Source: an uncultured Gammaproteobacteria bacterium (GTDB lineage Bacteria; Patescibacteriota; Patescibacteriia; Patescibacteriales; UBA12465). Taken from it: a DNA stretch of 64,000 bases. The notes below the pieces were generated by a model that was not told where the DNA came from, did not search any database, and saw only the letters and a list, made by a program, of their open reading frames with translations. Of this stretch, positions 6,381 to 54,777 are shown one piece after another. Position numbers and translations under genes: made by a program. Location of the stretch: assembly GCA_964355275.1 (NCBI GenBank), contig CAYHCB010000002.1:6639-70638 (forward strand), read 5' to 3'. Every line of letters starts with the position of its first letter. Within the stretch, counting starts at the first letter, position 1.

Positions 6381-7638
6381 AGATAAAATAAGCCAATATT
6401 GTCTTTATTTTTGGCTACTTGTTTGGCCATGGCAGACAAAATTAATTATTCATTCTGCTCCAGTAAATTATTTAGAAATCTCCTTTTTTATTTCTTGGTT
6501 ATTACTGTTTATCCCATTTTTAGTTTGGGGTTGGCGATTTTTTTTGAGTGATTATTGGCGTTTTAAAAAAAACGATAAATATCCTTTATGGTGGCTTGGT
6601 TTAATTTTACTTGAACTTGTTGCTTTTTTATCAATTTTTTGGGCTGAAGATAAAATACTGGCGCTGTTTCGTTATTTAGTCTTAGTAATTGGCATTCTAT
6701 TATTTTATATTATAAAAAATAATAAAATAATTTTCATTCATAGGCTGGGAAACTTTTTTTTACTCGGTTTATTTATTCCAGCCCTTTTAGGCGTTTGGCA
6801 ATTCTTTAGTCAAAACACGGTAACCAGTAAATATTTAGGCCTAGCTTTTCATTCTTCCAGTCTCCTAGGTTCATCGGTTATAGAAACTAGTAGTGGGCGT
6901 TTTTTAAGGGCTTATGGATCCTTTGATCATCCTAATATTTTGGGCGGTTTAATGGCGTTAGCACTTATTATAATTATTTATTTAAGTTTAAAAAAAGAGA
7001 TCAGTAAAAATCAGAGATTATTTTATTTAATTAGTTTTATATTATTTTATTTAACTTTACTCCTTTCTTTTTCACGTTCCGCTATTCTAGCATTTTTTGT
7101 TAGTTTATTTTTTATACTAATTAATGCTTGGCGAGGCTCCTTGGTCCAGAAAAAAATAATTTATTTATTTATTACTCTGATGATCTGTGTTTCGGTTGTT
7201 GTTATTATGCCTAATCGCGAATTATTTTTTGTAAGAGTAAATGTAAATAGTCGCTTAGAGCAGAAATCTTTAATTGAAAGAGAATCTTATATTAGGCAGG
7301 CGGCAGACATTATTATAAAAAATCCAATACAAGGAGTGGGGCTTGGTAATTATATTTTAGCGGAGAAAAAAACAGATAATAGCCGGCACGAACTTTGGTA
7401 TTATCAACCGGTTCATAATTATTGGTTACTTATTTGGTCAGAAATTGGGTTATTTGGTTTGCTCGGTATTTTTATTTTTTGGTTTTCTATTATTAAGTTA
7501 AGTATCAAAAAATATTTATGGCCACTGGCTATTACTTTGTTTATTTTAAGTTTATTTGATCATTGGTTCTGGACGCAACCAATGGGGCTAATGGTGTTCT
7601 TCTTATTGGCCGCTTTTATGGTTCGAGAAGATTTTTAA
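6373..7638 (+). CDS. O-antigen ligase / Wzy_C-family polytopic membrane protein
   Basis: About 10 TM segments. FSRSAILAFFVSLFF followed by a large loop with GVGLGNY...H motif, typical of Wzy_C/WaaL/PglL-type proteins. Confidence 0.7.
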   Translation: MNKDKISQYCLYFWLLVWPWQTKLIIHSAPVNYLEISFFISWLLLFIPFLVWGWRFFLSDYWRFKKNDKYPLWWLGLILLELVAFLSIFWAEDKILALFRYLVLVIGILLFYIIKNNKIIFIHRLGNFFLLGLFIPALLGVWQFFSQNTVTSKYLGLAFHSSSLLGSSVIETSSGRFLRAYGSFDHPNILGGLMALALIIIIYLSLKKEISKNQRLFYLISFILFYLTLLLSFSRSAILAFFVSLFFILINAWRGSLVQKKIIYLFITLMICVSVVVIMPNRELFFVRVNVNSRLEQKSLIERESYIRQAADIIIKNPIQGVGLGNYILAEKKTDNSRHELWYYQPVHNYWLLIWSEIGLFGLLGIFIFWFSIIKLSIKKYLWPLAITLFILSLFDHWFWTQPMGLMVFFLLAAFMVREDF

Positions 7639-18551: not shown

Positions 18552-21248
18552 ATGATGAAAAATTTAACTTCTTTTTTAAAAAAATTTGGGCTACCATTTT
18601 TGATAATCATAGCTAGTTTTTTGTTAGTAAAAATTGCTTTAGCGGCCGATGGTGTCGATGTCGGAGCGGCGCAAGTAAATGAAACTTTAAAGTTAAGTAA
18701 CACCTCTCCATTTATTATTGTTGGTAAAATAATTCAAATAGCTTTAAGCCTGTTAGGCATTATCGCTTTAAGTATTATTATTTATGCTGGTTATCTGTGG
18801 ATGAGTTCGATGGGTAGCGAGGATAAAATTAGTGAAGCCAAAAGATTACTTAAAAATGCCGTGATCGGTATTATTATAATTTTATCAGCTTGGGGAATTG
18901 TTTATTTTGTTTTAGCAAAATTAATTGGCATAACTACTGGTGTTCCGGTTGCCCCTTCAAATGAAAATAATTTTCAAAATTTAAGTATCGGTGCTTTAGG
19001 CTCCTGCTCAATTGAATTAGTTTATCCTCAGCCAGATAGCAAAGAAGTGGCGCGCAATACAGCTATTTTAATTACCGCTAAAGAAGCCTTCCAACTGGAT
19101 ACGGTTTGTATAAACAAAATAACTAAGGCTCCTTGCGCCTGTGACAATACCCCTAATTGTAATTTTGTTAATCCTAATAATATTCAGATTTACAAAACAG
19201 CTGATGGTAATTCCTGCGCTTCAGCTAATTGCGAAACAAACATTAGAGATGTTGAAGTGTCAGTTCCTGCTGGCGGCAAAACATTAGTTCTTCGACCCTT
19301 AAATTATTTAGGAACATCAGTTGGTAATGTTGAATATGCTGTCAGGCTAACCAATGATCTTAAAAAACTAGGTGGCGAGACTTTATTTTCTTCTTGTTCT
19401 TCTGATTTTTTAGAATGGAAATTTGAAACTAGTAATAAATTAGATCTTACTCCACCAAAAGTAATTTCTGGTGGTATTTTCCCGCCAGTTGATAACGAGG
19501 CGGATATTCTTAGCCTTAATTCGGCCGCTAAAGCCGCTCAGGCAAAAATAGTAGTAACTGATTGTCCTAGAACTTATGCTCCCGCTGAACTAGTCAGTAT
19601 TACTAAAATCGGAGCCTCGGTTGACGCCGAAGTCGTTGTTGAACCAAATTATTCTGGAGAAATTACTAATTTTACTGTTGATTTATTAGGTAGTACTAAT
19701 AAAATGCGCTTATTTAGCGGTAATAGTTTACTGGGAGCTAGCGATATTATAAATAATCAAGCAATTTTTGAGGGTTACTTTACAGTTAGTATAGAAAGCG
19801 CCGTTGAAGGTAACTCTTGGGATATTATTGTAACTCCAGCTCAGGCAGCCGAAAATTTAGCAGTTGCTTATAAATCTTATATTTTTGTTAAACAGAAAAC
19901 TAATAGTGGTAATGAAATATTGGTCCCCGCCTCTTGTTCTCCTGGTGATATGGCCGCCAATATTGAAGTCGCATTAAGTGGTAACAGCGAAGTGAGCGTC
20001 TCTAGCTCGGGTGGCACCTTAACCATTTTTGCTAAAGCCGTTGGTTTGTCGGGAAACAGTCTAACTCTTTCTTCAAACGGCCGAGGTTTATTTTTACAAA
20101 AATTTTCTGGAGGCGTTGAAAAGAGTGAAACTTATGAAATTAAAGGACTAAGGGATAAGCCAATGAATTCTGTTATTCAGGTTAATTTTAATGAAGCTAT
20201 GAATCCGATGGTTTTGTCCGGTAAGGCTGATGAAGTTAAATCTTATCTTAGATTAATAAATGCTAGTGCCACGTCATTGGGTGATGGCGGTATTTGTGGC
20301 AGTAATGATGATTGCTTATCTTATAATTGTCAGGCCACATCTTGTGTTGGCGACTATATCAGCGGTAAATTTTCTTTAAGTAATGTTTATAGAACTCTAG
20401 AATTTATTTCTGATAAAGAATGCGGCGTTAATAGCTGTGGAGAAATAATGTATTGTTTGCCAGCTAGTAGTCACTTATCTTTAAAAATAAATGCTGCGGG
20501 GTTAAAAGCTTGTACGGCTGCCACTGATTGCCAAACTTTTGCTCCATATTCGGAATGCGTTAACAGTGTTTGTCGCGATACAATTGGTCAAGCTAGTTAT
20601 CCTTTAGCGGACGCCTTACAGCTTGACGGTGCAGTTGATTTAGCTTTTAATTCTTTAGATGGAAATCGTGATAATAAAGCTGACGGACCAATATTAGCTG
20701 TTTATCCCTTCTTTGTTGAAGGGGAAAATAATTTAGCTAAACGTGATGGTTTTCAATTCTCATTCTTTATTAGTAATCAAATTAATTCTATTCCTCCAAC
20801 TATTTCCCTTACTTCACCTAGATTACTTGAATCTAGTGTTTATGTTACTAATCCAGTAATTATCGATTTTAATGACTTAATGATGAATAGTACTTTGCTT
20901 ACTGGTAGATTAATTATAAATAATGGGTTGATAAATGTTGAACATAAATTACTTAATTTAAATAGTTCGACAGATAAACCTCTAGGGTATTGGCTTGAAA
21001 GTGAGAATAAAGAACGAGGAGTAGCCGATGGTGAACTAGACTTTACTTCAACAATTATGAAACATACAGATTTTTTTGAAGCGGTTACTTATGTTTCACA
21101 AATTGGTTCGGGGGTAAAAAATATTTACCAAAATTGTTTTAAACCAAGTATCGGTCCAGCCTGTTTGAATCTTAATGAGACAAATCCTTCTTGTTGTTTT
21201 GGTGAAGCAACTAATGTTTTAGATAAAAATGGTAATTGCGCTAATTAA
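18552..21248 (+). CDS. Surface protein: signal peptide + VirB2/TrbC-like (T4SS-pilin-like) two-helix membrane hairpin + about 770-aa Cys-containing ectodomain with Big_5/SbsA-like Ig segments
   Basis: N-terminus: signal peptide ending ALA-AD, KLSNTSP, hydrophobic helix, YLWMSSMGSEDKISEAKRLLKNAV, second helix IIILSAWGIVYFV. It is paralogous to the N-terminus of the next ORF. Downstream: DLTPPKV...VIQVNFNEAMNPMVL (Big_5-like) and CxxxDC...C motifs. Confidence 0.6.
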   Translation: MMKNLTSFLKKFGLPFLIIIASFLLVKIALAADGVDVGAAQVNETLKLSNTSPFIIVGKIIQIALSLLGIIALSIIIYAGYLWMSSMGSEDKISEAKRLLKNAVIGIIIILSAWGIVYFVLAKLIGITTGVPVAPSNENNFQNLSIGALGSCSIELVYPQPDSKEVARNTAILITAKEAFQLDTVCINKITKAPCACDNTPNCNFVNPNNIQIYKTADGNSCASANCETNIRDVEVSVPAGGKTLVLRPLNYLGTSVGNVEYAVRLTNDLKKLGGETLFSSCSSDFLEWKFETSNKLDLTPPKVISGGIFPPVDNEADILSLNSAAKAAQAKIVVTDCPRTYAPAELVSITKIGASVDAEVVVEPNYSGEITNFTVDLLGSTNKMRLFSGNSLLGASDIINNQAIFEGYFTVSIESAVEGNSWDIIVTPAQAAENLAVAYKSYIFVKQKTNSGNEILVPASCSPGDMAANIEVALSGNSEVSVSSSGGTLTIFAKAVGLSGNSLTLSSNGRGLFLQKFSGGVEKSETYEIKGLRDKPMNSVIQVNFNEAMNPMVLSGKADEVKSYLRLINASATSLGDGGICGSNDDCLSYNCQATSCVGDYISGKFSLSNVYRTLEFISDKECGVNSCGEIMYCLPASSHLSLKINAAGLKACTAATDCQTFAPYSECVNSVCRDTIGQASYPLADALQLDGAVDLAFNSLDGNRDNKADGPILAVYPFFVEGENNLAKRDGFQFSFFISNQINSIPPTISLTSPRLLESSVYVTNPVIIDFNDLMMNSTLLTGRLIINNGLINVEHKLLNLNSSTDKPLGYWLESENKERGVADGELDFTSTIMKHTDFFEAVTYVSQIGSGVKNIYQNCFKPSIGPACLNLNETNPSCCFGEATNVLDKNGNCAN

Positions 21249-21277: not shown

Positions 21278-24200
21278 ATGCCTAATAAACTTAAACATCT
21301 TCTGATTTTCATTTTTATTATTGGAGCAGTTTTTTTAACTTCCCAATATTCTTTAGCGGCAATTGTTGACACCGGCACTAGCACAGTAGATAGTTCAATA
21401 AAATTAAGCAACACTAGCCCGATAAAGGTTGTTACTAGTATAATAAATATTTTTTTAGGACTTTTAAGTTTAATTGCCGTTTCTTTAGTTTTATATGGTG
21501 GCTTTATTTGGATGACCTCAAACGGCAGTGAAGAAAAAATTGGAACGGCAAAAAAGATTTTACGTAATGCGGTTGTTGGCTTATTAATTATTTTATCAGC
21601 CTGGGGTATCGCTTATTTTATTTTAAGCAGGGTCTTAACAGCTACCGGAGGAATAGGCCCAGGTCTTGATAATTGTACAAATGGCGCCGTTATTAGTTGC
21701 GGTTGCGGTGGCGAACAAACTTGTAATGTTGGCACTTGGGGGCCTTGTTTAGGCTCTGTTCCAGCTGATTGCGAAGGCGGTGAGCAAAGTTGTGATAGTA
21801 ATCCAGATGCCCAGTGTCAGGCTGATGATACTCTATGTAGTCCAGATTCTTTATGCGACAGCGATACCTGTTTATGTAAACCAAAATTTAGTTTAGGTGA
21901 ATCTTGCAATACTACACCTGATGGAAGTTGTACGGCCGATACTAATTTATGTGGTCCTTATTTAACTTGTAATCCAGATAGTTGTATTTGTGAGGGGCCA
22001 CCAGTTATTACCGGTCTTAGTCCGGCTGGCGGTTATTGTGCTAATGATCAAAGTCGTGGTTGTAATCTTGACACTGATTGTTCCGGTGGCGCTAGTTGCG
22101 ATACTATTACTCCAAATGGTGCTGTTAATAACTTTATAAGTATTTATGGCTATAATTTTGGAACCTCCTCTAGTCTATTAGGTGATATTTTAAGCACTAA
22201 TAATTTTGAGCAAGGAGCGCTGGGAACTGTGCCAAATAATTTTACGGCTAATGCTCAAAAATATTCAAAAGTAGGAATTGTTGATACTGAATTTAAATCA
22301 GGGACACGAAGTTTGTCTTTACATCAAAACCCTAATTTAAATTATCCAGGAATTTGTAGCAGTGGCATTTGCCAGGATCTTAGTAATTGTACTTGGAATG
22401 CGCTAGACAAAACTTGTCATTTTTTAACTAGCGATAATGCTCATTTAACTGGTCCGGCAGTCTACCAAGAAGGCGAAACATTGGTTTGGGGAAATACTAA
22501 TAAAGTGATGCTAGCCAGTTTATCTTATAATCTAGCCCCCTTAAATTTCAGTATTGGTGAAACTTATTCTATTCATTTCTATTATAAAGGTAAGGCCGCG
22601 TCTAATGTTTTAATATCAGCTGGTGCTAATTTAGAAAATCCAACAATGTGTGCCGCTTATAGTTCTGCTGCCGCTCTAAAAAGTGGCTATACTTGGGACG
22701 GTACAAGCGTAACTCCTGCCCCACCAACTGGTGACGATCCTTGTCTTTTTGGGCAAACTTGCGAAAATCAATCTAATACTTGTTGTTTTAATGCACCTTA
22801 TCAGAAGAAGTGTTATGGTTCTTTGGATATGGCTTCTATTGCCGCTGGTACGACAAATGATTGGGCTTTATATTCTTATACCTTCCAATACACCCCAGAA
22901 ATGGCTAGCTGGCTGGATGTTTCAGGAAATAAATTAATGGAAATTGGTTTGCTAGCGGGTTATAATTCTACCGGAGCGGGTACCGATTTTTTTATTGATG
23001 ATTTTGAAATTACTAAGATTTTAAATAATGGACAGGTTACTTTTTTAGGAGCAAATGTCGCTGAATCACAGTTAGCTAATTTTCCTAATTTAATTAATCC
23101 AAATTGTATCAGTTCTTGGACTGATCGTCAGATTATTGTCGCCGTTCCCAGTGGCGCAACTAATGGTCCAGTTAAAGTGAAACGCGACGGCGACCTACCA
23201 GATAATACCGATATTACCAATAATGATATTGGCCCCAATATTAATGATTTTATAAAAAATGATATTTCTCGTCCGGGCTTGTGTTTAGTTAGCCCAACCC
23301 AAGGACTGCTTGGCGATAGAGTTGCTTATCAAGGTGCCAATTTAAAATATGGCACTGCTTATTTCGGTAAATATTCGAATGCCTTTAAAGGAATTAATTC
23401 TAATTTTTTAACTGATAATTTATCAGGTCAAGCTTTAGCCCCTAGCATTACCCCAGGTAAGACCACCACTTTTGTGGAGAGAACTTTACTGGGGGTTAAT
23501 CAACAAAGTAATGCTTTAATTTTTACTAAAGAAAAAGATAAGGAGGCGGGACCATATATTTCTTCTTTTTTCCCGATAACTGGACAATCTGGCCAGTATG
23601 TTACTATTTCTGGTGGCGGCTTCGGAAATACGCGAGGCAGTCGACAGGTTTTCTTTGGCGACAAAGAGGCTTCTTATATTTTTCCAGAAGTTTGCGCGAA
23701 TTCTGTCTGGAGTAATAGTCAAATTATAGTAAAGGTGCCAGAAAATTTAAATCCTGGAAACTATGGTATTAAAATAAACTTAGGGGATAATAATTTTATA
23801 AATACCGATTTACTTAGCCCTAATAATACTTTTAATTTTAATCCCGCTGAACCACTTAAAACTAGTTTATGCAAAATTGATCCAATTCGTGGGCAAATAG
23901 GTGATAAAGTCACTTTGTGGGGTGAATATTTTGGTAATAATGGTTCAGATATTTCAGTAGTCTTTAATCGTAATGTAAGCACTTCATCAAAAATAATTAA
24001 AGATGGCCAGGCTGATAAAGTGCAAACTATAGTGCCTATAGATTTAGATAAAGTCCCTGCTGTGCCAGCGATAACTGGGCCAGTTCATGTAATTAAAAAT
24101 GGACTATTTGGTAATGAACTCAATTTTATAGTGGGTAAGTGTATAAGTAATACTGAGTGCGGCGCCTCTAGTCCAATTTGTTGTCAGGGTAATACTTATA

Positions 24201-27200
24201 AGGCTGGTTCTTGTGCGGCCACTCTTTTATCTTGCTATTTTGATGTTCCTAATTCTGTTTATGAAACTAAATTTAATACTAATTTAATTGGTTCAACTAC
24301 GGAACCATTTGATAGCTGTATTGGCATGGCCGCTTTCTTTGGTACTTGTCAGACTGGTCAGTTTTGTCCAAATTCTCCGGGTAAATGTTCTCCATTTGAT
24401 CCAATTTTACCAGAAGTGCTAGGTGATTGCGGTGGCGCTAATTCTCAGTGCGGCGCCTTAACTTATTGTCAAAATAATCCTAACGTTTGTAATTATAATC
24501 AGGCAAAAGATCTTTGTCAGGCAAAGGTTTGCCAATTAGAAAATGAACTTAACTATACTTTGACAACCAATGGCGTTACTACGAACCATAAAGGTTTATT
24601 AAGCTGTCGCGAATATAGTGGTCCGATACAAGTGCCTGGACCAAAAACTTTTGTTAAACAACTTAAAGTTAATACCTCTTGTCCAGATGGATGGATTGCC
24701 TCTGATAGTGGTTATTGTGTAAGTGTTCCTTTGGTTCCTTGCACACCATGTCCTACAAATTTTGAATGTGTAGATAATGGCGCCGGAGGAACACTAGGTC
24801 TTTGCGAGTCACCTAAAATTTGTAGTCAAAATTCTTCTTGTGGCGTTAATCCAAATAATCCTAGCAAATTTTCTTGTCTTATTGCTGGTCAGAAAAGTTG
24901 TGATTGTTGTTGTGAAATAGGCCAGGATGCCAGAGATTGTTGCGCTCCTTTAAAGTGCGCTGGTACTTGCGGTAGTGATACTACCGATAATAATGATGGT
25001 TTTGGTAGTTGCTCTGGTTGCGCTGATGTTGGAACTACCACCGCTGAACATGATGCCGCTTGTAATTGTAGTTTAGCTAGTGGTAAGTTTTGTAAAATTG
25101 ATGAGAAAAATACTGGGGGAATTTGTGTTGACTGTGCCTCTTTAGACGCCGTCGGTTGTTCACTCCATTCAGCCCAGTGTTGTTTTGACGATACAAAAAA
25201 TACTTGCCAAGGAGGAGACGGCACAGTAATCCCAGGCGGAAAATGCGCTTATTATGATTGTGATGCTGTAGATAAAACTCAGTGTAATATAACGGCCACG
25301 ACAACTGGACAATTTTTAGCTACTTCAACCTGTATTACTAATTGCGCGGCTAATCCTCAAACAGCTTGTGATTTAGCTGGTGCCGATTCAGTTAAATGCT
25401 CAGCTTTAGGAGCTTGCTGTTTTGATGGTAAAAATAATAAATGTACTAACGGAACAGATAAGATTAATTTATTAGGTATTAATTACTGTGCATATTATGA
25501 TTGTAATACAGAGAGAACAGCTTGTGATTTAGGTTCGGCTACCACCACTGGAGAATTTTTAGGAACTGTAAAATGTGAAGATGGCTGTGATAACCAATTT
25601 TCTTTACCAGGTTCAACCTGTGCGTCAGCAGAAACAAATGCTTGTAATACTAGTTTCTGTGGTAATCCTTATTCTTGTCGCACGGAAGCCGGCGAACCGC
25701 CAACTACCGGTGACTGTGGTATTTGTTGTTGTAACCCGCAAGATATTAATGCTTGTTCAGATACTGATGGTTTAAAATGCGTACCGAACAAAACTCCTTG
25801 CGGTGGCGGAAAAAGAGGTTTATGTTGCGGCTGTACTTCTGATACTGAATGCGGCGATAATGTAAATCAGGGCTGCGGTAGCGATACTTGTTGCCATGGG
25901 CGCCCTAATGTTGTTAGTACTTTACCGGAACATAATAAAGAACAGGTTTGTCGTAATGGTCAAATAGTTGTTAATTTTGATTCCATGATGGACACTCAAG
26001 CTTTAGGCGCTAATATTTTATTAGTTGAAGAAAAAGAATACGGACAAGATACTTGTCCTAGTGGCACCACTTTGTCGATGAACCCTTTTAAGACCAAAGA
26101 AACAAATATATTTGCCAAATTATATTATAGAATAACTAGTAGCCTGATCAGTATTTTTGGAAGGACAAATTCTAGCGCCACCGCGGCCACCCCCTCTCCT
26201 GATAAACTATATTGTGTTTCCCCAACAATAGTTGAACCACAAATAACTTCGACAAATGGTGTAACCACAACCGTAATCTATATCAGGCCAATGAAAATAA
26301 TGAGTGCTAACGCTAATTATTTTGTGGTTATAAAAGGTGATGAAAATTTAGATAGTAATTCAGGCGTTGTAAGCGAAAATAAAATTGGTCTTAACGCCAC
26401 CGCTTATAGTCCGATTGTTAATGCAGAATTCAATCAAGTATTATTTAGAAATTCTTATACTTTTGGCTTTACTACGATGGATGATACTAGTGGTAAAAAT
26501 GGATTATGTACTGTAGATAGTGTCGCCCTTAATCCTAATTCGTTTATCATAAAAAGTCCCGATAATGATGTTAGTGATGATAATCCATTTATTGGTGCTT
26601 TTGATACTAAGAGTGATAATGATAGAGCGATTTCGGCTTTAGCTTATAGTGTTGATGAACAATTATTACAACCAGTAACTGGTTATTATTGGAAGTGGGA
26701 CTGGAATATTGAAGATAGTTCAGTAGCGCAAAATCAGTTAACAGAAGGACTAAACTCTAATCGAATCGTAGTTGCTGCCGTAACTGGTGTTACGGATAAA
26801 GGCACTAAGATTAGCGCTGCTGTTAATATGTATAATTTTAGTAGCATGGGTAATTGCGTTTCTAATAATTGTGTATGTAGTGGCACAGATTGTTCTAATA
26901 ACTGCTGTAATGCTAGTTTAGATGGTGATGGAACCACTGGAGAATCAGATCTTTATGTATTTTTATGTGCGAACCCTTGGCCAATAGAAGTAAATGGTAT
27001 CTGGAATCCTTGGGCAGACAAATGTACTGATGCTAACGGAAATATTATTCCTCAATGTACTAATTATAATTATAAATTTTATTACTGTCGTGATGCTGGT
27101 AAGCCAGGCACAACCGATGATTTGCCAGCGGTAATTGATCCAGCTTTAATTTTAGGTTCCTCAAATCTTATTTGTAGCGTTGGCGGGGCTGCCTGTGAAA

Positions 27201-27904
27201 ATCAAAATACCCCTTGCGGTGAAGGAGGCACTTGTATTTGGAATGTGCTTAAAGAATCTTATTTCTTCCGTGAAGCAATTCCTCAGTCTGGTGAAATTAC
27301 TGAAGTAAAAAGTACGGGAGCTGGTGGGCAGATTGCTATTAGTTGGTATGCTCCAATTAATAATTTAGCTCCGGCCGCCTCTTTTAAGGTTTACTATGGA
27401 CTGGTTCCAACTGGTACCAGCTCTTATGTGGTACCGCTAACTCTAGCTGAGGCGTCATGTAATGTTAATGGGGATAAGAATTACTGTTCATATTTAGTTA
27501 ATGGATTAATAGATAATCAGAAATATTATTTTAAAGTATCAGCTATCTCTGAGAAAAAAGCGGAAAGTCCTCTTTCTGGAAGCATGGAAGTAATTGTAAC
27601 CGACACCACTCCGCCAGCTAAACCAATTGGCTTGAATGTGGAATTACTTACTAGTTCAGTTAAAGTAACTTGGACGCCTAACACTGACGATGCTCTTTAT
27701 TATCGATTATTTCATGGTCTTTTTACCGGCAAAGTATCTGATTCAGTTGACTCCCCAAATAATGCAAGTAGTTTAGAATTTAATCGAGATAACTATCGAC
27801 CTGGTGATCACTATTTTTCTTTATCAGCGATTGATAAAAGTAACAATGTAAGTGCCGCGTCTGATGAAATTAAATTTGTTATGCCTTCTGCGCCAATTAA
27901 TTAA
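21278..27904 (+). CDS. Giant (2208 aa) surface protein: VirB2/TrbC-like N-terminal hairpin + EGF-like Cys knots + IPT/TIG domains + CBM-like jelly roll + novel Cys-rich repeats + Big_5-like + two FN3 domains
   Basis: N-terminal about 120 aa roughly half-identical by eye to ORF 18552. IPT/TIG-like ITGLSPAGG..ISIYGYNFG, PITGQSGQYVTISGGGFG, IDPIRGQIGDKVTLWGEYFG. TDFFIDDFEI (CBM4/9-like). C-terminal DTTPPAKPIGLNVE...VKVTWTPN (FN3-like). Confidence 0.6.
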   Translation: MPNKLKHLLIFIFIIGAVFLTSQYSLAAIVDTGTSTVDSSIKLSNTSPIKVVTSIINIFLGLLSLIAVSLVLYGGFIWMTSNGSEEKIGTAKKILRNAVVGLLIILSAWGIAYFILSRVLTATGGIGPGLDNCTNGAVISCGCGGEQTCNVGTWGPCLGSVPADCEGGEQSCDSNPDAQCQADDTLCSPDSLCDSDTCLCKPKFSLGESCNTTPDGSCTADTNLCGPYLTCNPDSCICEGPPVITGLSPAGGYCANDQSRGCNLDTDCSGGASCDTITPNGAVNNFISIYGYNFGTSSSLLGDILSTNNFEQGALGTVPNNFTANAQKYSKVGIVDTEFKSGTRSLSLHQNPNLNYPGICSSGICQDLSNCTWNALDKTCHFLTSDNAHLTGPAVYQEGETLVWGNTNKVMLASLSYNLAPLNFSIGETYSIHFYYKGKAASNVLISAGANLENPTMCAAYSSAAALKSGYTWDGTSVTPAPPTGDDPCLFGQTCENQSNTCCFNAPYQKKCYGSLDMASIAAGTTNDWALYSYTFQYTPEMASWLDVSGNKLMEIGLLAGYNSTGAGTDFFIDDFEITKILNNGQVTFLGANVAESQLANFPNLINPNCISSWTDRQIIVAVPSGATNGPVKVKRDGDLPDNTDITNNDIGPNINDFIKNDISRPGLCLVSPTQGLLGDRVAYQGANLKYGTAYFGKYSNAFKGINSNFLTDNLSGQALAPSITPGKTTTFVERTLLGVNQQSNALIFTKEKDKEAGPYISSFFPITGQSGQYVTISGGGFGNTRGSRQVFFGDKEASYIFPEVCANSVWSNSQIIVKVPENLNPGNYGIKINLGDNNFINTDLLSPNNTFNFNPAEPLKTSLCKIDPIRGQIGDKVTLWGEYFGNNGSDISVVFNRNVSTSSKIIKDGQADKVQTIVPIDLDKVPAVPAITGPVHVIKNGLFGNELNFIVGKCISNTECGASSPICCQGNTYKAGSCAATLLSCYFDVPNSVYETKFNTNLIGSTTEPFDSCIGMAAFFGTCQTGQFCPNSPGKCSPFDPILPEVLGDCGGANSQCGALTYCQNNPNVCNYNQAKDLCQAKVCQLENELNYTLTTNGVTTNHKGLLSCREYSGPIQVPGPKTFVKQLKVNTSCPDGWIASDSGYCVSVPLVPCTPCPTNFECVDNGAGGTLGLCESPKICSQNSSCGVNPNNPSKFSCLIAGQKSCDCCCEIGQDARDCCAPLKCAGTCGSDTTDNNDGFGSCSGCADVGTTTAEHDAACNCSLASGKFCKIDEKNTGGICVDCASLDAVGCSLHSAQCCFDDTKNTCQGGDGTVIPGGKCAYYDCDAVDKTQCNITATTTGQFLATSTCITNCAANPQTACDLAGADSVKCSALGACCFDGKNNKCTNGTDKINLLGINYCAYYDCNTERTACDLGSATTTGEFLGTVKCEDGCDNQFSLPGSTCASAETNACNTSFCGNPYSCRTEAGEPPTTGDCGICCCNPQDINACSDTDGLKCVPNKTPCGGGKRGLCCGCTSDTECGDNVNQGCGSDTCCHGRPNVVSTLPEHNKEQVCRNGQIVVNFDSMMDTQALGANILLVEEKEYGQDTCPSGTTLSMNPFKTKETNIFAKLYYRITSSLISIFGRTNSSATAATPSPDKLYCVSPTIVEPQITSTNGVTTTVIYIRPMKIMSANANYFVVIKGDENLDSNSGVVSENKIGLNATAYSPIVNAEFNQVLFRNSYTFGFTTMDDTSGKNGLCTVDSVALNPNSFIIKSPDNDVSDDNPFIGAFDTKSDNDRAISALAYSVDEQLLQPVTGYYWKWDWNIEDSSVAQNQLTEGLNSNRIVVAAVTGVTDKGTKISAAVNMYNFSSMGNCVSNNCVCSGTDCSNNCCNASLDGDGTTGESDLYVFLCANPWPIEVNGIWNPWADKCTDANGNIIPQCTNYNYKFYYCRDAGKPGTTDDLPAVIDPALILGSSNLICSVGGAACENQNTPCGEGGTCIWNVLKESYFFREAIPQSGEITEVKSTGAGGQIAISWYAPINNLAPAASFKVYYGLVPTGTSSYVVPLTLAEASCNVNGDKNYCSYLVNGLIDNQKYYFKVSAISEKKAESPLSGSMEVIVTDTTPPAKPIGLNVELLTSSVKVTWTPNTDDALYYRLFHGLFTGKVSDSVDSPNNASSLEFNRDNYRPGDHYFSLSAIDKSNNVSAASDEIKFVMPSAPIN

Positions 27905-27955: not shown

Positions 27956-30900
27956 ATGCGTGCCAAAATTATTAATCTCAAAAATTTAAGTATTGGTTTG
28001 CTCGCAGTTTGTGCTATTTTTGTTTTCTTAATTTTGCAAACAAAAGCGGCGGAGCAATCTGATGCGATTGCAGTCAGAGTCATGCCTAATCCTAGTCATG
28101 ATAGTATTGGCACTTGGTATGCCAATCAAGGTTTTAGAGGATCACCCCAAAGTTTAATTGTTGATGGTTATGAAGCAATTCGTGATGGCCGCACAGTTTT
28201 TATAAATGCTGCTAATTTAGATTCAGATAATAATAAGTTATATACTAATATATATTTAATTTCTTATAATCAGGAATCAGCTGAAAAAACAGTAGATATT
28301 TTAGGCCAATTAGTTTCTCATTGGAAGTTTAATAATAATGCTGCAACTACTGGTTTTTGTACTATTTCTAAATTAACTTGTCAGGCTGACTCCGATTGTC
28401 CTAAAAATTATTTGTGTGAAAATTCCTCTGGTGAACCTAATGAAGGAAAATGTATTTTTAAAGAAGAACATGCTTGTAACCCCTTAAGTGAGGCACCATG
28501 TAATAAAACAAAAAATAAAACTTGTTTGATAGATAGTGATTGTCCAGTCAATTTATTTTGCGATAGCTTAAAAGCTAAAATAACTAGAGATGTTAAACGC
28601 TTGGGCGATTTTAATAAAATAAAGGAGGCGATAGATTTATATAAAGTAAATAATGGAAATTATCCTGACTTACAATCTGGTACTTATGTTTTAGGTAGCA
28701 GTATTTCTGTTTGGCCTAGCTGGAAGGATACACTTTGGCCAAAACTTAAATTAGATAAATTAATTGTGGACCCTATAAATACTTTAGGTTATTGCGCTGG
28801 TTACGACCCGACAACTTGTTGGAATAAGGATACCAACCAATTTTTTAGCAGTGAATTAGTATTACCATATGGTAGTTATGCTTTTATTTATAAGTCTACT
28901 AAAAATGGAGTTAACTATGATTTGTGTGGTGTGTTTGAAGCTAAAGATGCTGGCTATGATACCGCTGAAGGACAACTAACCTCTAAATCATGTAATGTGG
29001 GGGCTGGTTATGGTGGCAGCAATACTAATACTGAGCCAAAATTAATTAGCTCTTACACTAATGGTGAGACTGGTAAAGAGTTTAATGGTTATGTAAAGGC
29101 TGCCGATTTAGAGGGCGATTTTATATCTTGGACTTTAACACCAATAACCCCTGCCGGCAGTTGGACTGGTTGGAGTGGTCTACCGGTTTTGAAAGATGCT
29201 GGTGACATTAATCAGAAGAAAATATATGCTTTAAAAGCAGGCAATCAAGGCGCCTATAAAATGCTTTTAGAATTAAAAGATAGTCGTGGAGCAGCGACTA
29301 CCAGCGAGTTAACTTTTAATATTAGTCCTGCTAATAAACCTAAAATTGAAGCTGAAAATGCTGATTATTTTGTTGATCCACTGAATCTTTTTAAATATAC
29401 TTTTTATCTTCAAGGTAGTGATTCAATACCAACTTATACTTTTTTACCAGTAAATCCCACAGGTGATAATCCATTATTAAAGGCTAATATTGCGGCGGCG
29501 GCAACAACTCTAACCCCAATTGGTTTAAATCGGGTTAAAGTTGATCTCTTAATTTTTATTCCCACCTCAACTCCGGTAATTTCTGATGTTACAATTCCTT
29601 ATAAAATTACGGCTACTACTAATGGCTCTCCGGCTACTAAAGATATAAATCTTAATTTTAAAATTGAACAACCTTATTTAGATTTTCAGTGCGAAAACAT
29701 GGCGCGTTTAGGCAAGGCTTATCAAATTAGTCAAAACAATGTTCCTCGTTCCTGTTTGTTGGGTAATTTAAAAAGTGGTAATCATAGTTTACGTTATACT
29801 GTCACTGGCCCATCTGGTTTATTAATTCGTAATGATGATTCTAATGCTTATTTAGAGTCTAACTATATTTCAGCCGGCACGGTTGAAAATAATGTCAAAA
29901 TAAAAGTTGTTAATGAATATGCGGCTAATACTGAGAAAACTTTTAATTTAAAAGTGAATACTTTTTGCGGCGATGGGGTAAAACAAAAAGATAACGGTCC
30001 AAATACAGAAGGTCGCGGTGGCCTGTTAAATGATGGTATGGAGTCTTGCGATGGCGCCCAGGGGGTTCAAACTAATGCCATAAGTACTTCATCAGAGATA
30101 CAATATGGTTGTGCCACCGAAATTGGGACTAACTCACCTTATCCAATTATCGATAATAATAATTGTGTCTTTAAGCCTGCTGATGCGGGAGGTGGTTTTT
30201 GCGGCGACGGTGTTTGTCAGTTCCAAATTTTAGCTAATGGTCAACCGAAGTTAATGGAAAATTGTTGGAATTGTAGTCAGGATTGCGGAACTTGTTTAGC
30301 CACAATAATTTCTAAAGCTGATAATGAACACATTGCTTATACAAATAGTAAGCGTCTCTATAAGCAACAAATATCCGATGCCACTTCTACGGCAACAACT
30401 ACTTTAGTTGCCGGAGAAAACGTTTTTTCTTTTTGGACTCATAATTTTTATGATAATCAATATGGTTTAGCTTTTTTAATAAATTTTGGGCCCTTACCAA
30501 CTAGCACTAATGTTAACCCACCTATTTTTGCTACTTTTAATTCTAGTCACTCTGCCTTAAAATGCACTTCAACCCCTATCTCGCCTAGTGGTAGTAATTC
30601 AGACGATGGTTTTGACCCCGCTAATATTTTAAAAGACGGAAATTATAATTGGACCGATATTGGTTTTAGTCAAAATTGGCCAATTCATTCTAATACTAGT
30701 CATCAGCCACCATATTCCGCTGGCACTTTTATTCCTTTTGTTTGGGATAGCGGTGGAAAGTCAGTTGGGTATTCTAGCTCTTGTCGCCTATCTTTTACAT
30801 ATAACCCTTATAACACCGGAGCTTGTCAGCCTGATTGCGCTGGCAAAACCTGCGGTTCTAATGGTTGCGGCGCTTCTTGCGGATCCTGTACCGCTGGTCA

Positions 30901-31495
30901 AGAATGTTCACCAACCGGTAATTGCGTTTGTAGCCCTAATTGTAATAATAAATGCGGTGGTTCTAATGGTTGCGGTGGTTCTTGCCCTAATAATTGTCAA
31001 TTACCAGAAACCTGCGGCGGCGGTGGCGTTCCTAATGTTTGTGGCATATCTGGTTCTTGCGGCGATTCTCAGTGTGGCGACGGAGAAACCTCACTTTCTT
31101 GCCCAATTGATTGCCCAGGGTGCTGTTTAGATCTTTTAAATAGCCCACATAATTGTACTACTGTTTGGTGCGCGGAGTTAGGCTCTAATAGTTTCTGTAC
31201 CCTAGATTGTGATGAAGGATTATTTTATTTTAGTGATAATTTTACTGGTTACGGTGATATTGGTAATAACTGTAAATCAAAAGAGACGGAAGTAAAATGT
31301 GGCCATGGGGCTCACTGCGGTTGGTTAAATGCTCTCCCACAGTGCGTTACTCAGGGAATGAATGGTGGTGGCGGGTCTGGTTATTGTGGTGATAATATCT
31401 GTAACAATGGGGAAACTTATATGACTTGCTGTCTTGATTGTGGTACGCCTACCCAGAGATGCTATCTTGAAGATCCTGGTGGGGGCACTAACTAA
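27956..31495 (+). CDS. Secreted 1179-aa Cys-rich protein with an internal type IV pilin / T2SS pseudopilin-like globular domain and C-terminal CGxxGCGxSC / CGDGxC repeats
   Basis: Sec-type signal (..LQTKA-AEQ). aa 207-330 ITRDVKRLGDFNKIKEAIDLYKVNNGNYPDL... matches the RDxxRxxDLxxIxxALxxYxxxNGxYP pilin-head pattern but lacks a G/FTLIE prepilin leader. CQPDCAGKTCGSNGCGASCGSCTAGQEC and FCGDGVCQ..., CGDSQCGDGETSLSCPIDC, YCGDNICNNGETYMTCCLDC. Confidence 0.6.
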   Translation: MRAKIINLKNLSIGLLAVCAIFVFLILQTKAAEQSDAIAVRVMPNPSHDSIGTWYANQGFRGSPQSLIVDGYEAIRDGRTVFINAANLDSDNNKLYTNIYLISYNQESAEKTVDILGQLVSHWKFNNNAATTGFCTISKLTCQADSDCPKNYLCENSSGEPNEGKCIFKEEHACNPLSEAPCNKTKNKTCLIDSDCPVNLFCDSLKAKITRDVKRLGDFNKIKEAIDLYKVNNGNYPDLQSGTYVLGSSISVWPSWKDTLWPKLKLDKLIVDPINTLGYCAGYDPTTCWNKDTNQFFSSELVLPYGSYAFIYKSTKNGVNYDLCGVFEAKDAGYDTAEGQLTSKSCNVGAGYGGSNTNTEPKLISSYTNGETGKEFNGYVKAADLEGDFISWTLTPITPAGSWTGWSGLPVLKDAGDINQKKIYALKAGNQGAYKMLLELKDSRGAATTSELTFNISPANKPKIEAENADYFVDPLNLFKYTFYLQGSDSIPTYTFLPVNPTGDNPLLKANIAAAATTLTPIGLNRVKVDLLIFIPTSTPVISDVTIPYKITATTNGSPATKDINLNFKIEQPYLDFQCENMARLGKAYQISQNNVPRSCLLGNLKSGNHSLRYTVTGPSGLLIRNDDSNAYLESNYISAGTVENNVKIKVVNEYAANTEKTFNLKVNTFCGDGVKQKDNGPNTEGRGGLLNDGMESCDGAQGVQTNAISTSSEIQYGCATEIGTNSPYPIIDNNNCVFKPADAGGGFCGDGVCQFQILANGQPKLMENCWNCSQDCGTCLATIISKADNEHIAYTNSKRLYKQQISDATSTATTTLVAGENVFSFWTHNFYDNQYGLAFLINFGPLPTSTNVNPPIFATFNSSHSALKCTSTPISPSGSNSDDGFDPANILKDGNYNWTDIGFSQNWPIHSNTSHQPPYSAGTFIPFVWDSGGKSVGYSSSCRLSFTYNPYNTGACQPDCAGKTCGSNGCGASCGSCTAGQECSPTGNCVCSPNCNNKCGGSNGCGGSCPNNCQLPETCGGGGVPNVCGISGSCGDSQCGDGETSLSCPIDCPGCCLDLLNSPHNCTTVWCAELGSNSFCTLDCDEGLFYFSDNFTGYGDIGNNCKSKETEVKCGHGAHCGWLNALPQCVTQGMNGGGGSGYCGDNICNNGETYMTCCLDCGTPTQRCYLEDPGGGTN

Positions 31496-31516: not shown

Positions 31517-31792
31517 ATGATACAATTAGACAATAAGAAAAAATTTTTTATAATCTTGGCTGCTATTATAGTAGTGGCGTTATTAATTTTTATTTTAAGT
31601 AGAGTAAAAAATAATAAAAATATTATTGAACCAGACGTTTTGGTTATAGGCGACACACAAACAAAGGGTTTGCCGACAAGACTTATGACCGAGGAAGAAA
31701 AAATTTATAAAGTTGGTATTGATCCTGCTCAGGAGGTTGAAGTTTTAAAAGATCAGGATGGTCTTTATAATTATCGCTTGAAAAATAAATAA
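31517..31792 (+). CDS. Small single-pass membrane protein (91 aa)
   Basis: N-terminal TM (FFIILAAIIVVALLIFIL) and short soluble tail. It sits 21 nt after the previous ORF in the same-strand block. Confidence 0.4.
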   Translation: MIQLDNKKKFFIILAAIIVVALLIFILSRVKNNKNIIEPDVLVIGDTQTKGLPTRLMTEEEKIYKVGIDPAQEVEVLKDQDGLYNYRLKNK

Positions 31793-31813
31793 AAATTTTT
31801 AAATAACTATTTT

Positions 31814-32611
31814 ATGTTTAATGACTTAAATCAAACAGGTCAGCCTGCCCCACAAGCTCCAGTAGATGATATTTTTGCTGAAACTGATAAAAATGCCGAG
31901 GCTAAAAAGTTTTCTGGATATTATTCTAACCAGACTACCCCCGGTGTTTTAAATAGTTCTGTAGAAATAGAAACTCAAAGAGTGGGCTTATCGTCGGCCG
32001 AAGATGTTCCGGTATCGTCTAAGGGTAAAATTTTAAAAATAGTTTTAATAATCTTATTAATTTTATTATTGTTAGGGTTAGGTTATTTGGTTTATGCTAA
32101 ATTTTTAACAGGTGCAAAAACTGATAATAATTTAGCTTTAACCTCAACCACTACGGCCACTACTTCGGTAATTAAAGAAGAATCTAAAATCACTTTCGGC
32201 CAAGATTTAACTGTAAACGAAGTGGCCACCGAAACTGTCCCGGTTAGTGAAGAGGTTGTCGTTATCCCGTCTATTCCCATTGCCACAACTACTCCACCGG
32301 TTAGTAATTTAACTGATTTTGATGATGATGGTTTAACTGACGAAGAAGAAAATATTTTAGGTACTGATATTAACCTTAAAGATACTGATACCGATGGTCT
32401 CTCTGATTATGAAGAAGTAAAAATTTATAATACTAATCCCAATAAAATAGATACTGATGGTGATCTTTTATCAGATTATGAAGAAGTAAAAATTTATAAA
32501 ACCGATCCTCTTAAAGTAGATACTGATGGTGATACTTATTCTGATGGTGCAGAAGTACAAGGTGGCTACAATCCACTTGGTACTGGTAAAATGACAGACG
32601 TTCCTAAATAA
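31814..32611 (+). CDS. Membrane-anchored protein with thrombospondin type-3-like calcium-binding repeats
   Basis: Central TM (ILKIVLIILLILLLLGLGYLVYA), Thr-rich linker, then DFDDDGLTDEEE, DTDTDGLSDYEEVKIYNTNP, DTDGDLLSDYEEVKIYKTDP, DTDGDTYSDGAEV (DxDxDG-type acidic repeats). Confidence 0.6.
   Translation: MFNDLNQTGQPAPQAPVDDIFAETDKNAEAKKFSGYYSNQTTPGVLNSSVEIETQRVGLSSAEDVPVSSKGKILKIVLIILLILLLLGLGYLVYAKFLTGAKTDNNLALTSTTTATTSVIKEESKITFGQDLTVNEVATETVPVSEEVVVIPSIPIATTTPPVSNLTDFDDDGLTDEEENILGTDINLKDTDTDGLSDYEEVKIYNTNPNKIDTDGDLLSDYEEVKIYKTDPLKVDTDGDTYSDGAEVQGGYNPLGTGKMTDVPK
32381..32557 (+). repeat. 69-nt (23-codon) tandem repeat, 2.5 units, encoding the DTDGDxxSDYEEVKIY(N/K)T(N/D)P calcium-binding repeat
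   Basis: Units start at 32381, 32450 and 32519. The 26-nt block gattatgaagaagtaaaaatttataa is identical at 32405-32430 and 32474-32499. Confidence 0.85.
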
Positions 32612-32645
32612 AATATAGGAACCACTAATTTAAAATAATTTTGGT

Positions 32646-32849
32646 ATGAATAATAGTTTTGTTGAAAAAAATAAACTTAAAAATAAAAATGGTCTTTTTT
32701 CACAGAAAAAACCAGAACGAAAAGTTTCTTTAAGTCTTCATATTATGCCAAAAAGGCGGGAATCAGATGACGTTAAAGTTTTCAGCTGGTTAATTGCCAG
32801 CCTATTAATTATTTCCAGTTTGATTATTTTACTAATGATGTATGTTTAA
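32646..32849 (+). CDS. Small C-terminally anchored hypothetical protein (67 aa)
   Basis: Basic N-terminus and C-terminal TM (FSWLIASLLIISSLIILLMM). Overlaps the next ORF by 8 nt. Weak coding evidence. Confidence 0.3.
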   Translation: MNNSFVEKNKLKNKNGLFSQKKPERKVSLSLHIMPKRRESDDVKVFSWLIASLLIISSLIILLMMYV

Positions 32850-33873
32850 AGGTTTCCAAAAATCTAAAATTACTTTTAACCCTGATAAAAAAATTGAAGA
32901 TAAAATCAGCGCTGACTTTGTTACCCATAATATGCCAGAATCAAATCGTTTTTCTGGTCAGACTTTTTCTGACACAAAAATTACTAGCAGTAATAAATCA
33001 GTGATTATCCCTGAAGTAGCCAGTCATCATAAAATTGGTTTTTTAATAATTGGTGGTGGTCTAGTTTTGGTAGCAGTTTTATTATATTTTGGTTATTCTT
33101 ATTTTGTTAAACCGCTTCTTAATCCAACAGAAGTTCCGGTTGTTAATATAAATACGATAGAAAATAATGAAATCACAACTACTACGAATTTAAAAAATGA
33201 AGATTCTGAAACTATTTCAGATAGTATTATAAGCGATGCTCCTATTATTGCCACCTCTACACCTGTTACACCATCTTCTACGGAACCAATTTTAGCAGAA
33301 GAGCGTCCAGTAGTTTTAGAAACGGTAAAAGTTTCAACAGTTGATTCAGATGCTGACGGTTTAACTGATGATGAGGAAAGAATTGTGGGCACTGACCCTA
33401 ATAAAGCTGACACCGATGATGATGGTTATTTAGATTTAGCTGAACTTAAAAGTGGCTATGATCCGCTTGTTCCTAACCAAAAAATATCAGAAAATTCCTC
33501 AATGCTAAGTTATCAAATTGATCAAGAAGCCAGTATTATTTATCCTTTAACTTGGGATATAAGTAAAAGTGAGGCTAACAATACGATAATTTTTGCTGAT
33601 TCTGATAAAGCCTTTATTCAGGTTTTTTATCAAGATAACCCAGAAAAATTAGCGCCTAATCTTTGGTTCGGTCAGCAATTTTCTGGCGTGACCCCTGGAG
33701 AGTCAGTTAGTGGCCAAACTTGGCAAGGAGTTTATTCTAGCGATGGCTTAGCTGCTTATATATTTAACAAAGATTTTTCAAAAATTTATAATTTTTCTTG
33801 TTCTCCTTTAACGTCTGATACTAGTAGCGTTACCTTATTCCATTTAATGATTAAAACTTTAGTGATTAAATAA
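32842..33873 (+). CDS. Membrane-anchored protein with TSP3-like acidic repeats and a C-terminal globular domain
   Basis: TM (IGFLIIGGGLVLVAVLLYFGY), Thr/Ser-rich linker, DSDADGLTDDEERIVGTDPNKADTDDDGYLDLAELKSGYDP, then a domain of about 130 aa. The architecture parallels ORF 31814. Confidence 0.55.
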   Translation: MFKGFQKSKITFNPDKKIEDKISADFVTHNMPESNRFSGQTFSDTKITSSNKSVIIPEVASHHKIGFLIIGGGLVLVAVLLYFGYSYFVKPLLNPTEVPVVNINTIENNEITTTTNLKNEDSETISDSIISDAPIIATSTPVTPSSTEPILAEERPVVLETVKVSTVDSDADGLTDDEERIVGTDPNKADTDDDGYLDLAELKSGYDPLVPNQKISENSSMLSYQIDQEASIIYPLTWDISKSEANNTIIFADSDKAFIQVFYQDNPEKLAPNLWFGQQFSGVTPGESVSGQTWQGVYSSDGLAAYIFNKDFSKIYNFSCSPLTSDTSSVTLFHLMIKTLVIK

Positions 33874-39280: not shown

Positions 39281-39284
39281 TTAT

Positions 39285-40067
39285 ATGAACGAATATTTAT
39301 TAATTGGTCCGATTTTTTCTTTAATTTTTGGTTTGTTGATTGGTAGTTTTATTAACTGCCTAGCTTGGCGATTGTATAAAGAAGAAACAATTTTTGGTCG
39401 CTCTTATTGTCCTAAATGTTTAAAACAAATTTTGTGGCATGACAATATTCCCCTTTTAAGTTTTATTTTATTAAAGGGTAAATGCCGTTCATGTTCCGAG
39501 AGAATATCTTGGCAATATCCTCTAGTTGAACTTACAACTGGCCTTTTGTTTTATTTTTCTTTTTTATTTTATGGTGCTTTGTCGCCACTTATACTTCTTA
39601 AAATTTTTATTGCCATTGCCGTTTTAGTTCTGGTGTTTATCTTCGATTTTCGTTGGTATCTAATTCCAGTTTCCGCTCTACTATGGTCCGGTTTAGTAAT
39701 AATTATTTTAGGAGCCTTAACTTATCCTTATAATTTAGGCTCTTATCTTTTTGCTTTAGCTGTTTCTATGATTTTAGGTGTTCTATTCTTTGGAATTCAA
39801 TATTTAATTACCAGAGGTAAGGGGTTAGGCGAGGGTGATATCTGGCTAGGATTATTTTTAGGCGCCTTATTTCCGAGTATACCAGAGCTTTGCGTCGCTA
39901 TTTTAGGGGCTTACTTTATTGGTTCAATTGTTGGTTTAAGTCTTTTGTTATCAGCCCATAAAAAATGGGGAAGCAAACTGCCTTTAGGCGTTTTCTTGGC
40001 AATCTCTGGGGTTATTTCTTTGTTTTATGGTAATGAAATTGCTTCTTGGTATTTAGGCCTTTTTTAG
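39285..40067 (+). CDS. pilD: Type IV prepilin peptidase (A24 family)
   Basis: LIGSFINCLAWRL, CPKCLKQILWHDNIPLLSFILLKGKCRSCSERISWQYPLVE (four-Cys motif), second catalytic region GLGEGDIWLG. Confidence 0.88.
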   Translation: MNEYLLIGPIFSLIFGLLIGSFINCLAWRLYKEETIFGRSYCPKCLKQILWHDNIPLLSFILLKGKCRSCSERISWQYPLVELTTGLLFYFSFLFYGALSPLILLKIFIAIAVLVLVFIFDFRWYLIPVSALLWSGLVIIILGALTYPYNLGSYLFALAVSMILGVLFFGIQYLITRGKGLGEGDIWLGLFLGALFPSIPELCVAILGAYFIGSIVGLSLLLSAHKKWGSKLPLGVFLAISGVISLFYGNEIASWYLGLF

Positions 40068-54758: not shown

Positions 54759-54777
54759 ATTTTTTATATTTATTTTT

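Follow-up and report, generated by a model that had tools for sequence, protein, structure and literature searches.

Type IV pilins are defined by a class III leader and a hydrophobic helix segment, alpha1-N (PMC8179133). Modular type IV pilins such as S. sanguinis PilB/PilC, CofB, and GspK have as their defining feature a class III motif (IPR012902) at the N-terminus, are polymerised into filaments, and carry their extra modules on the C-terminal side (PMC8179133). Here we describe a gene that departs from this arrangement. It lies at positions 27956-31495 (plus strand) of a 64,000-nucleotide (nt) stretch of contig CAYHCB010000002.1, referred to below as the window, and its product (the target) carries a domain resembling a type IV pilin head deep inside a Sec-exported polypeptide. 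The window belongs to a genome of the Patescibacteria (candidate phyla radiation, CPR) and has a low GC content of ~34 %; the nearest relatives of its proteins come from metagenome-assembled genomes (MAGs) of Candidatus Falkowbacteria.

The target shares with modular type IV pilins the union of a pilin module and adhesion-type modules (Ig-like, beta-sandwich) in one polypeptide. Unlike theirs, its pilin module is internal, leaderless, and helix-truncated, is without IPR012902/PF07963, and is not expected to be incorporated into a filament. Compared with type IV pilins and GspG pseudopilins themselves (PF08334, TIGR01710, and Patescibacteria prepilins named 'type II secretion system protein G'), the target has the same alpha1-C motif (RD..R..D...L..AL..Y...NG.YP), colinear DP, aromatic-strand, and Y.L....E-strand motifs, a predicted helix-on-sheet head, and a conserved cysteine near the C-terminal end. 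However, it lacks the class III leader, Gly-1/Glu+5, and the hydrophobic alpha1-N, its head follows a Sec signal peptide and ~170 amino acids (aa) and precedes ~830 aa more, two family-specific insertions interrupt the head, and its scores fall below the curated cut-offs. PilY1/PilC adhesins are also ~1000-aa, Sec-dependent, modular non-pilins of type IV pilus biology, but no C-terminal propeller was detected in the target, its gene is not beside minor pilins, and PilY1 has no pilin head. The archaeal proteins ArlF and ArlG (FlaF/FlaG) contain archaellin-related domains that are not class III-processed, and they act at the S-layer. They parallel the target in concept, in that a domain derived from a filament subunit has been put to new use in an envelope protein that does not polymerise, but they belong to another domain of life and another fold lineage, retain a membrane helix at the N-terminus, and sit in the operon of the filament machinery. 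Since the features that define pilins, modular pilins, and PilY1 adhesins were not found in the target, we describe its domain as pilin-derived and the architecture around it as new. The searchable literature yielded nothing specific on a pilin-like domain in surface proteins of Patescibacteria/Falkowbacteria.

The open reading frame (ORF) had been singled out in an earlier reading of the letters alone (the sequence-only reading), whose coordinates and quoted strings are exact, including those of aa 207-330, located at nt 28574-28945. A full-length AlphaFold2 (AF2) model has an overall predicted local distance difference test (pLDDT) score of 76. The parts of the protein are as follows; the percentages after aa ranges are mean identities to the target.

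27956..31495, plus strand: whole gene; 1179-aa secreted, Cys-rich (65 Cys, 5.5 %), multidomain surface protein
27956..28048, plus strand: Sec (class I) signal peptide, aa 1-31; signal peptidase I (SPase I) cut predicted after T-K-A31; AF2 helix at 9-26
28052..28351, plus strand: N-terminal beta-rich domain (N-domain), aa 33-132, 72 %, the most conserved part of the protein
28352..28564, plus strand: two small disulfide-knot modules (Cys knots), aa 133-203, 49 %; C-x2-D-x-D-C-P-x4-C motifs; end directly at the pilin-like helix
28565..28993, plus strand: pilin-head-like domain (head), aa 204-346, 54 %; without class III leader or alpha1-N
28583..28675, plus strand: alpha1-C motif core within the head, aa 210-240, TRDVKRLGDFNKIKEAIDLYKVNNGNYPDLQ, aligned to prepilin ARDARRVSDVRQLQLALQMYYDANGSYP
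29036..29965, plus strand: tandem Ig-like beta-sandwich stalk, aa 361-670, 39-42 %; AF2 pLDDT mostly 85-97
29966..30295, plus strand: conserved CGDG Cys module, aa 671-780, 56 %
30296..30805, plus strand: variable beta-sandwich domain, aa 781-950, found in roughly half of the homologues; AF2 strands with pLDDT 74-96
30806..31492, plus strand: variable Cys-rich tail, aa 951-1179; a CG(G)SNGCGxSC pair and two CGDxxC...C..DC units; AF2 pLDDT below 50 from aa 998

The target begins with a textbook Sec signal peptide, MRAKIINLKN-LSIGLLAVCAIFVFLIL-QTKA, with AEQSD following the predicted cut. Its n/h/c layout and its AXA site just before an invariant SDAIAVR are kept in the target and in 30 aligned homologues, and it is the sole hydrophobic 19-mer of the whole protein on the Kyte-Doolittle scale. 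A hidden upstream prepilin leader or a mis-called start was ruled out, as the stop-to-stop frame starts at 27938, which leaves just 6 codons ahead of the ATG, and the Sec signal peptide is common to the homologues. No class III motif (G-[FM..]-T-L-I-E) occurs in the six frames of the whole window, and a Pfam search of the target protein gave no match to PF07963. Across 243 family proteins no such motif lies upstream of the domain, and the only two regular-expression matches are both far downstream. Family members likewise have no prepilin leader ahead of the domain, which is always preceded by the N-domain and the Cys-knot modules. The hydrophobic alpha1-N (~21 residues, the filament core) is absent as well, with a maximum 19-residue Kyte-Doolittle value of 0.55 over aa 150-215 versus a median of 2.87 in 100 prepilins, and the residues just before the pilin-like helix form a Cys knot (..CPVNLFCDSLKAK). 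The sequence-only reading had placed the domain behind a Sec signal peptide and had denied it a class III leader, and both points hold: ~170 residues of other domains follow the signal peptide, and neither a motif, an open upstream frame, nor an alpha1-N is there. The protein has no recognisable site for PilD and is not a canonical PilD substrate. Because the leader and alpha1-N are absent, neither PilD cleavage nor insertion into a type 4 filament is expected.

The case for pilin ancestry was built by comparing a profile of 38 family domains with 100 Patescibacteria prepilins, real database proteins of ~140 aa that all contain PF07963. A synthetic consensus probe, which is itself not evidence, served to collect them. 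HHalign aligned the two profiles at 95.9 % in local mode (E 6e-9) and at 96.1 % in global mode, with E values of 2e-9 to 6e-9 across modes. Controls stayed low, with 0.1 % for the reversed alignment, at most 3.6 % for 30 column shuffles, and 0.2 % for the unrelated N-domain. Among 374 six-frame ORFs of the window, a hidden Markov model (HMM) of the prepilins matches the target alone (E 3.5e-4). Searches with single sequences and curated models agree, though all stay below threshold, and their matches are all to GspG-type pilins: T2SSG matches the whole protein (E 0.052), the isolated domain (E 0.002), and 11 of the 38 family domains, the best with E 0.002; TIGR01710 matches with E 0.034; and phmmer against the PDB gave five matches only, all of them GspG pseudopilins (E 0.023-0.4). 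HHalign against the single E. coli GspG sequence gave only 44 %. Homology sets in at alpha1-C, just past the point where the hydrophobic alpha1-N of a pilin would end, and AF2 predicts a helix at 205-233 (pLDDT >90) followed by strands at 248-252, 310-315, and 321-325, with a domain mean pLDDT of ~80. Sequence comparison thus supports well the homology of the start of the domain (aa ~207-240) to the alpha1-C helix of type IV pilins or GspG pseudopilins, in keeping with the pilin-type start proposed in the sequence-only reading.

The remainder of the head is colinear with prepilins. In the global alignment the family motifs DP-IN, SYAFIY, and NYDLCGVFE line up with prepilin DP, YxY, and YxLGAxLE, with two family-specific insertions between them (GTYxxGxSxSVWPSW and the C280-C288 loop). 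Invariant residues are R211, D212, R215, P237, W253, W256, D272, P273, N275, C280, C288, W289, C324, E328, and C346, and the four cysteines among them (C280, C288, C324, and C346) are invariant across 116 sequences. Three homologues tolerate insertions of ~155 aa after ~aa 281, near C280-C288, and this region is therefore probably surface-exposed. A complete pilin head fold is likely but unproven, and the structure predictions are compatible with a pilin head but not probative. AF2 puts a helix of 29 residues ahead of a small sheet with 3-4 short strands, and a Foldseek search with the model of the isolated domain ranked EpsG, CofA, and a Shewanella pilin first to third among 350,542 chains. 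A Foldseek search with the full-length model was swamped by Ig, cadherin, and titin matches and was uninformative for the head.

The domain arrangement is a conserved property of a lineage-wide family and is not peculiar to the target gene. In 623 word-indexed homologues, the first ~770 aa (the N-terminal ~65 %) are 40-65 % identical and the C-termini vary. An exhaustive search with the domain by itself recovered at least 1178 clusters (50 % identity) at E<=1e-3, 700 of them at E<=1e-10, and an N-domain scan of GTDB found relatives in at least 238 species genomes. The internal position of the domain is the same in all 120 close homologues and in all 241 full-length members examined, and the same N-domain stands upstream of the head in 241 of 243 proteins, the two exceptions being truncated ORFs. 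Because the head always follows this N-domain, it is not a shuffling domain but part of a fixed base, ordered as signal peptide, N-domain (aa 33-132), Cys knots (133-203), and head (204-346). Beyond the CGDG module conservation drops to 23-35 % identity with 30-53 % coverage for the distal beta-sandwich and Cys-rich tail; the sandwich (aa 781-950) has 23 % identity and 53 % coverage, and the tail is covered to 30 % across homologues. The clusters of distant members are named only 'hypothetical' or 'putative metal-binding motif-containing protein'. In some relatives, such as L019 (JBMNOL010000005.1) and L043, the target family is present twice at one locus (in L019 with 1361 and 1059 aa), which suggests local duplication of this adhesin-like gene. 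Of the MAG contigs bearing this Patescibacteria-specific gene block, many go under the title 'uncultured Gammaproteobacteria bacterium' (binchicken/SRP co-assemblies), one under 'Bacillota', and one under 'Proteobacteria'; such GTDB record titles look like placeholder or erroneous taxonomy.

The N-domain (aa 33-132) has no Pfam family, and its profile matched only one kind of structure in the PDB, the teichoic-acid-binding SLAP domain of Lactobacillus SlpA (8alu/7qfg, PMC11181022), weakly and over ~aa 63-123 (E 0.013-0.016). Both domains occupy a conserved end of a surface protein, the N-terminal end in the target versus the C-terminal end in SlpA. A cell-wall-polymer-binding role of the N-domain is a possible, weak lead from this comparison. 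In the Cys knots C135, C190, C196, and C202 are invariant, the only matches are sub-threshold (Lustrin_cystein and Dickkopf_N), and AF2 pLDDT is ~87-92 over most of their length and 55-65 at aa 171-190. For the Ig-like stalk, the top Foldseek matches of the full-length model include titin, cadherins, and the S-layer protein EA1 (rank 16), and He_PIG is weakly matched in homologues.

The gene also has a conserved neighborhood, whose main members in the window are these:

18552..21248, plus strand: syntenic partner 1, an 898-aa surface protein with a signal peptide and a VirB2-like two-helix N-terminus (PF18895, T4SS_pilin)
21278..27904, plus strand: syntenic partner 2, 2208 aa, 134 Cys (6.1 %), with a VirB2-like N-terminus and TIG, Big_5, and fn3 domains; ends 51 nt before the target
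31517..33873, plus strand: downstream syntenic genes for a 91-aa small membrane protein and for 265-aa and 343-aa proteins with bacterial TSP3 (Ca-binding) repeats
39285..40067, plus strand: PilD (A24), genuine by A24_N_bact (5.7e-30) and Peptidase_A24 (3.5e-6); 7.8 kb downstream of the target and directly after a Wzy_C gene; not expected to act on the target

From partner 1 through partner 2 to the target the gaps are 29 and 51 nt, and those that follow are 21, 21, and 230 nt. Past the target the order is the 91-aa membrane protein, the two TSP3 proteins (the first, 31814-32611, with an internal transmembrane segment), ClpP (minus strand), SecD, SecF, Wzy_C, PilD, FtsA, and FtsZ; SecDF and an S26 peptidase (SPase I) are thus encoded inside the window. 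We retrieved 79 GTDB loci with the N-domain alignment and counted synteny where flanks were recovered. In the large majority of these, RelA (minus strand) is followed by a VirB2-like protein of ~900 aa, a second of 1500-2400 aa, the target, two TSP3 proteins, ClpP (minus strand), SecDF, and Wzy. Both TSP3 proteins are syntenic with the target in most relatives, partner 1 is also found at its upstream position in L001-L003 and L085, and the distant member P0196 keeps the VirB2-VirB2-target triad alone. Promoter and terminator scans gave counts near the shuffled-sequence level and were not used.

VirB2-like arrays are known in Patescibacteria (PMC12102498). In this locus the two partners share an N-terminus of ~145 aa (signal peptide plus VirB2-like hairpin, PF18895 / NF045849) that is 45 % identical between them, so that a conjugative-pilin module apparently anchors two giant surface proteins in the membrane. 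BLASTP found no domain common to the target and these two neighbours. The locus therefore contains a second pilin-type module fused to large surface proteins, but of an unrelated fold and secretion system, and these modules are N-terminal membrane hairpins, unlike the soluble head of the target, which has no membrane segment after signal-peptide cleavage.

We think it reasonably probable that the target is a Sec-exported, SPase I-cleaved, disulfide-stabilised fibre or adhesin of the cell surface whose base is conserved and whose tip varies, and that a pilin head was exapted in it to serve structure or docking without polymerising. In the ancestral type IV pilin or GspG-type head, the upstream domains would have taken the place of the class III leader and alpha1-N. 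Judging by the conserved canonical signal peptide, the protein would be exported by Sec and cut by SPase I after A31; the invariant cysteines suggest oxidative folding outside the membrane; and the observed lack of a leader and alpha1-N implies that PilD would be bypassed and no filament entered. The conservation gradient and synteny are consistent with a base that includes the pilin head and may keep the protein attached to the envelope, with the wall or the VirB2-anchored neighbours as the site of attachment. From the architecture, the Ig-like stalk would project the fast-evolving Cys-rich tip for binding. The head itself is most likely a rigid structural or protein-docking module, by which the base would be held to the envelope.

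Several observations weigh against this reading. Every match to a curated model is below its cut-off. Pfam T2SSG (PF08334), which has a cut-off of 21 bits, scores 14.1 bits with the whole protein and 18.6 bits with the isolated domain, and TIGR01710 (GspG) scores 14.2 bits against a cut-off of 88.85. The family profile found no PDB sequence at E<=10. In the local alignment with prepilins only 31 columns (aa 210-240) are individually confident, the model of the isolated domain has a pLDDT of 74, and the pilin matches from Foldseek are not significant (E 2.2-5.9, TM score 0.28-0.39). Retention on the wall would depend on the E~0.01 match of the N-domain to SlpA, in which the YxY...KxxN phosphate-binding motif is apparently not kept (judged by eye from the printed alignment, the second Tyr corresponds to Ile and the K/N positions differ). 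Finally, the distant members P0208 and P0185 have no VirB2-like neighbours, and docking to such neighbours is therefore not a universal role.

These observations leave room for a narrower explanation, which we consider rather unlikely: that only a helix of ~30 residues (RDxxRxxDxxxLxxALxxYxxxNGxYP) was kept from a pilin, or arose by convergence, that aa 241-346 have another fold, and that 'pilin head' is an overstatement. The confinement of confident columns to aa 210-240 speaks for this explanation, as do the empty profile search of the PDB, the Foldseek values, and the two insertions (SxWPSW and the C280-C288 loop) between the motifs. The later motifs are also not significant alone, as a second prepilin-HMM segment (aa ~307-337) has an independent E value of 120. 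However, the DP, the aromatic-x-aromatic strand, and the YxLCxxxE strand follow one another, and play the parts, as they do in the 100 real prepilins, AF2 places the helix ahead of a small sheet as in pilins, and the best three Foldseek matches are all pilins. The C-terminal halves of pilins are hypervariable, which also counts against a helix-only kinship. The disulfide-bonded end of a pilin head proposed in the sequence-only reading accordingly stands only in part: its motifs are colinear with those of prepilins and its four cysteines are invariant, but neither these motifs alone nor the Foldseek comparison reaches significance.

Returning to the exapted head, a bolder extension would make the 900-aa and ~2000-aa VirB2-anchored proteins and the leaderless pilin-head protein parts of one previously undescribed surface apparatus of ultrasmall, Parcubacteria-type bacteria. 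In it a pilin module of type IV secretion systems (T4SS) would have become a membrane anchor and a pilin module of type 4 filaments a soluble docking head, giving giant non-filament adhesins for attachment to hosts or particles. We regard this extension as quite improbable.

It is somewhat more doubtful still that the target rides on a type IV pilus as a Sec-secreted adhesin, in the manner of PilY1/PilC or CofJ/TcpF, with its alpha1-N-less head docked on the heads of tip or minor pilins. Its size and Sec signal resemble those of non-pilin tip adhesins, which have been described as modular carriers (PMC8179133), its head is pilin-derived, and PilD and a Wzy_C-family gene lie 6-8 kb downstream in the same orientation; one distant member also has a small T2SSG-like gene 5 kb upstream. 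However, the 64-kb window and the loci examined around the gene revealed neither pilB/pilT/pilC/pilMNO nor a prepilin gene, VirB2-like, TSP3, and housekeeping proteins (ClpP, SecDF) make up the conserved neighbours, and the target gives no Pfam match to the PilY1/PilC beta-propeller. Least probable of all is a structural surface layer built of the family and its two VirB2-anchored neighbours with the pilin head as lattice contact, since core-genome-like conservation with a fixed place beside SecDF/ClpP in most of the 79 species loci, the weak likeness between the N-domain and the S-layer anchoring domain of SlpA, and EA1 among the Foldseek matches of the Ig-like region would suit it, but the hypervariable, often absent distal domains are more adhesin-like than lattice-like and the similarity evidence is weak throughout.

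The distal Cys-rich repeats had been likened in the sequence-only reading to those of myxobacterial surface proteins. Its near-duplicate units are present where it had put them, as CGSNGCGASC (aa 966-975, nt 30851-30880) and CGGSNGCGGSC (aa 1000-1010, nt 30953-30985), and the CGDG-type units were located at aa 671 (CGDGVKQ...CDG), 749 (CGDGVCQ...CSQDC), 1035/1040 (CGDSQCGDGETSLSCPIDC), and 1144 (CGDNICNNGETYMTCCLDC). The 'myxo-type' label found no support, because Pfam and NCBIfam searches, including the TIGRFAM myxococcal repeat model, were without matches: neither the Cys-rich segments (aa 664-784 and aa 949-1179) at E<=10 nor, for the Myxococcus-type repeat (TIGR02232 / PF13948), the whole protein at E<=1 gave a match. 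Only a bare CGDG...C motif is held in common. The two TSP3 proteins (31814-32611 and 32842-33873) give partial, far-sub-threshold matches to CglD and MtsD of Myxococcus through their TSP3 repeats, and these are the only 'myxo-like' HMM signals of the locus.

The finding itself neither reveals nor demonstrates a new mechanism. A pilin head without leader and alpha1-N, long fixed in a Sec-secreted multidomain protein, falls outside the surveys of modular pilins published so far, whose starting point is the N-terminal IPR012902 motif, and calls for caution with automated 'pilin' counts in Patescibacteria. The family is large, is annotated only as 'hypothetical protein', and belongs to a block of envelope genes that ranks among the most conserved in Falkowbacteria-type genomes. 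It offers a concrete candidate for the envelope or attachment biology of an uncultivated lineage.

Other features of the window were noted in passing. At 37325-40067 a 651-aa protein of the Wzy_C (O-antigen-ligase) family is encoded 4 nt ahead of PilD, a pairing also present in the relative L001, and a second Wzy_C gene lies at 6373-7638. The Wzy_C Pfam family includes pilin O-oligosaccharyltransferases, which suggests glycosylation of pilins or surface proteins. At 46995-49091, between nrdG-like and RNase T-like genes and with no further T4SS gene nearby, a 698-aa ATPase resembling TrwB/VirD4-type coupling proteins carries a treble-clef zinc finger. An integrative element of ~6.2 kb (53747-60075) is inserted at tRNA-Gln(ttg) (53747-53818). 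One copy of a 29-nt direct repeat, 21 nt of it exact (AATCCTGGTCCCCGAGCATAA), spans the 3' end of the tRNA at 53802-53830, and the other, at 60047-60075, lies just where a large serine recombinase gene (58526-60067) ends. The element's cargo comprises a Rep protein (57391-58338), a STAND/ATPase_2 NTPase (54778-55998, minus strand), and two ORFs without a Pfam match. The GC skew turns negative at 54-56 kb.

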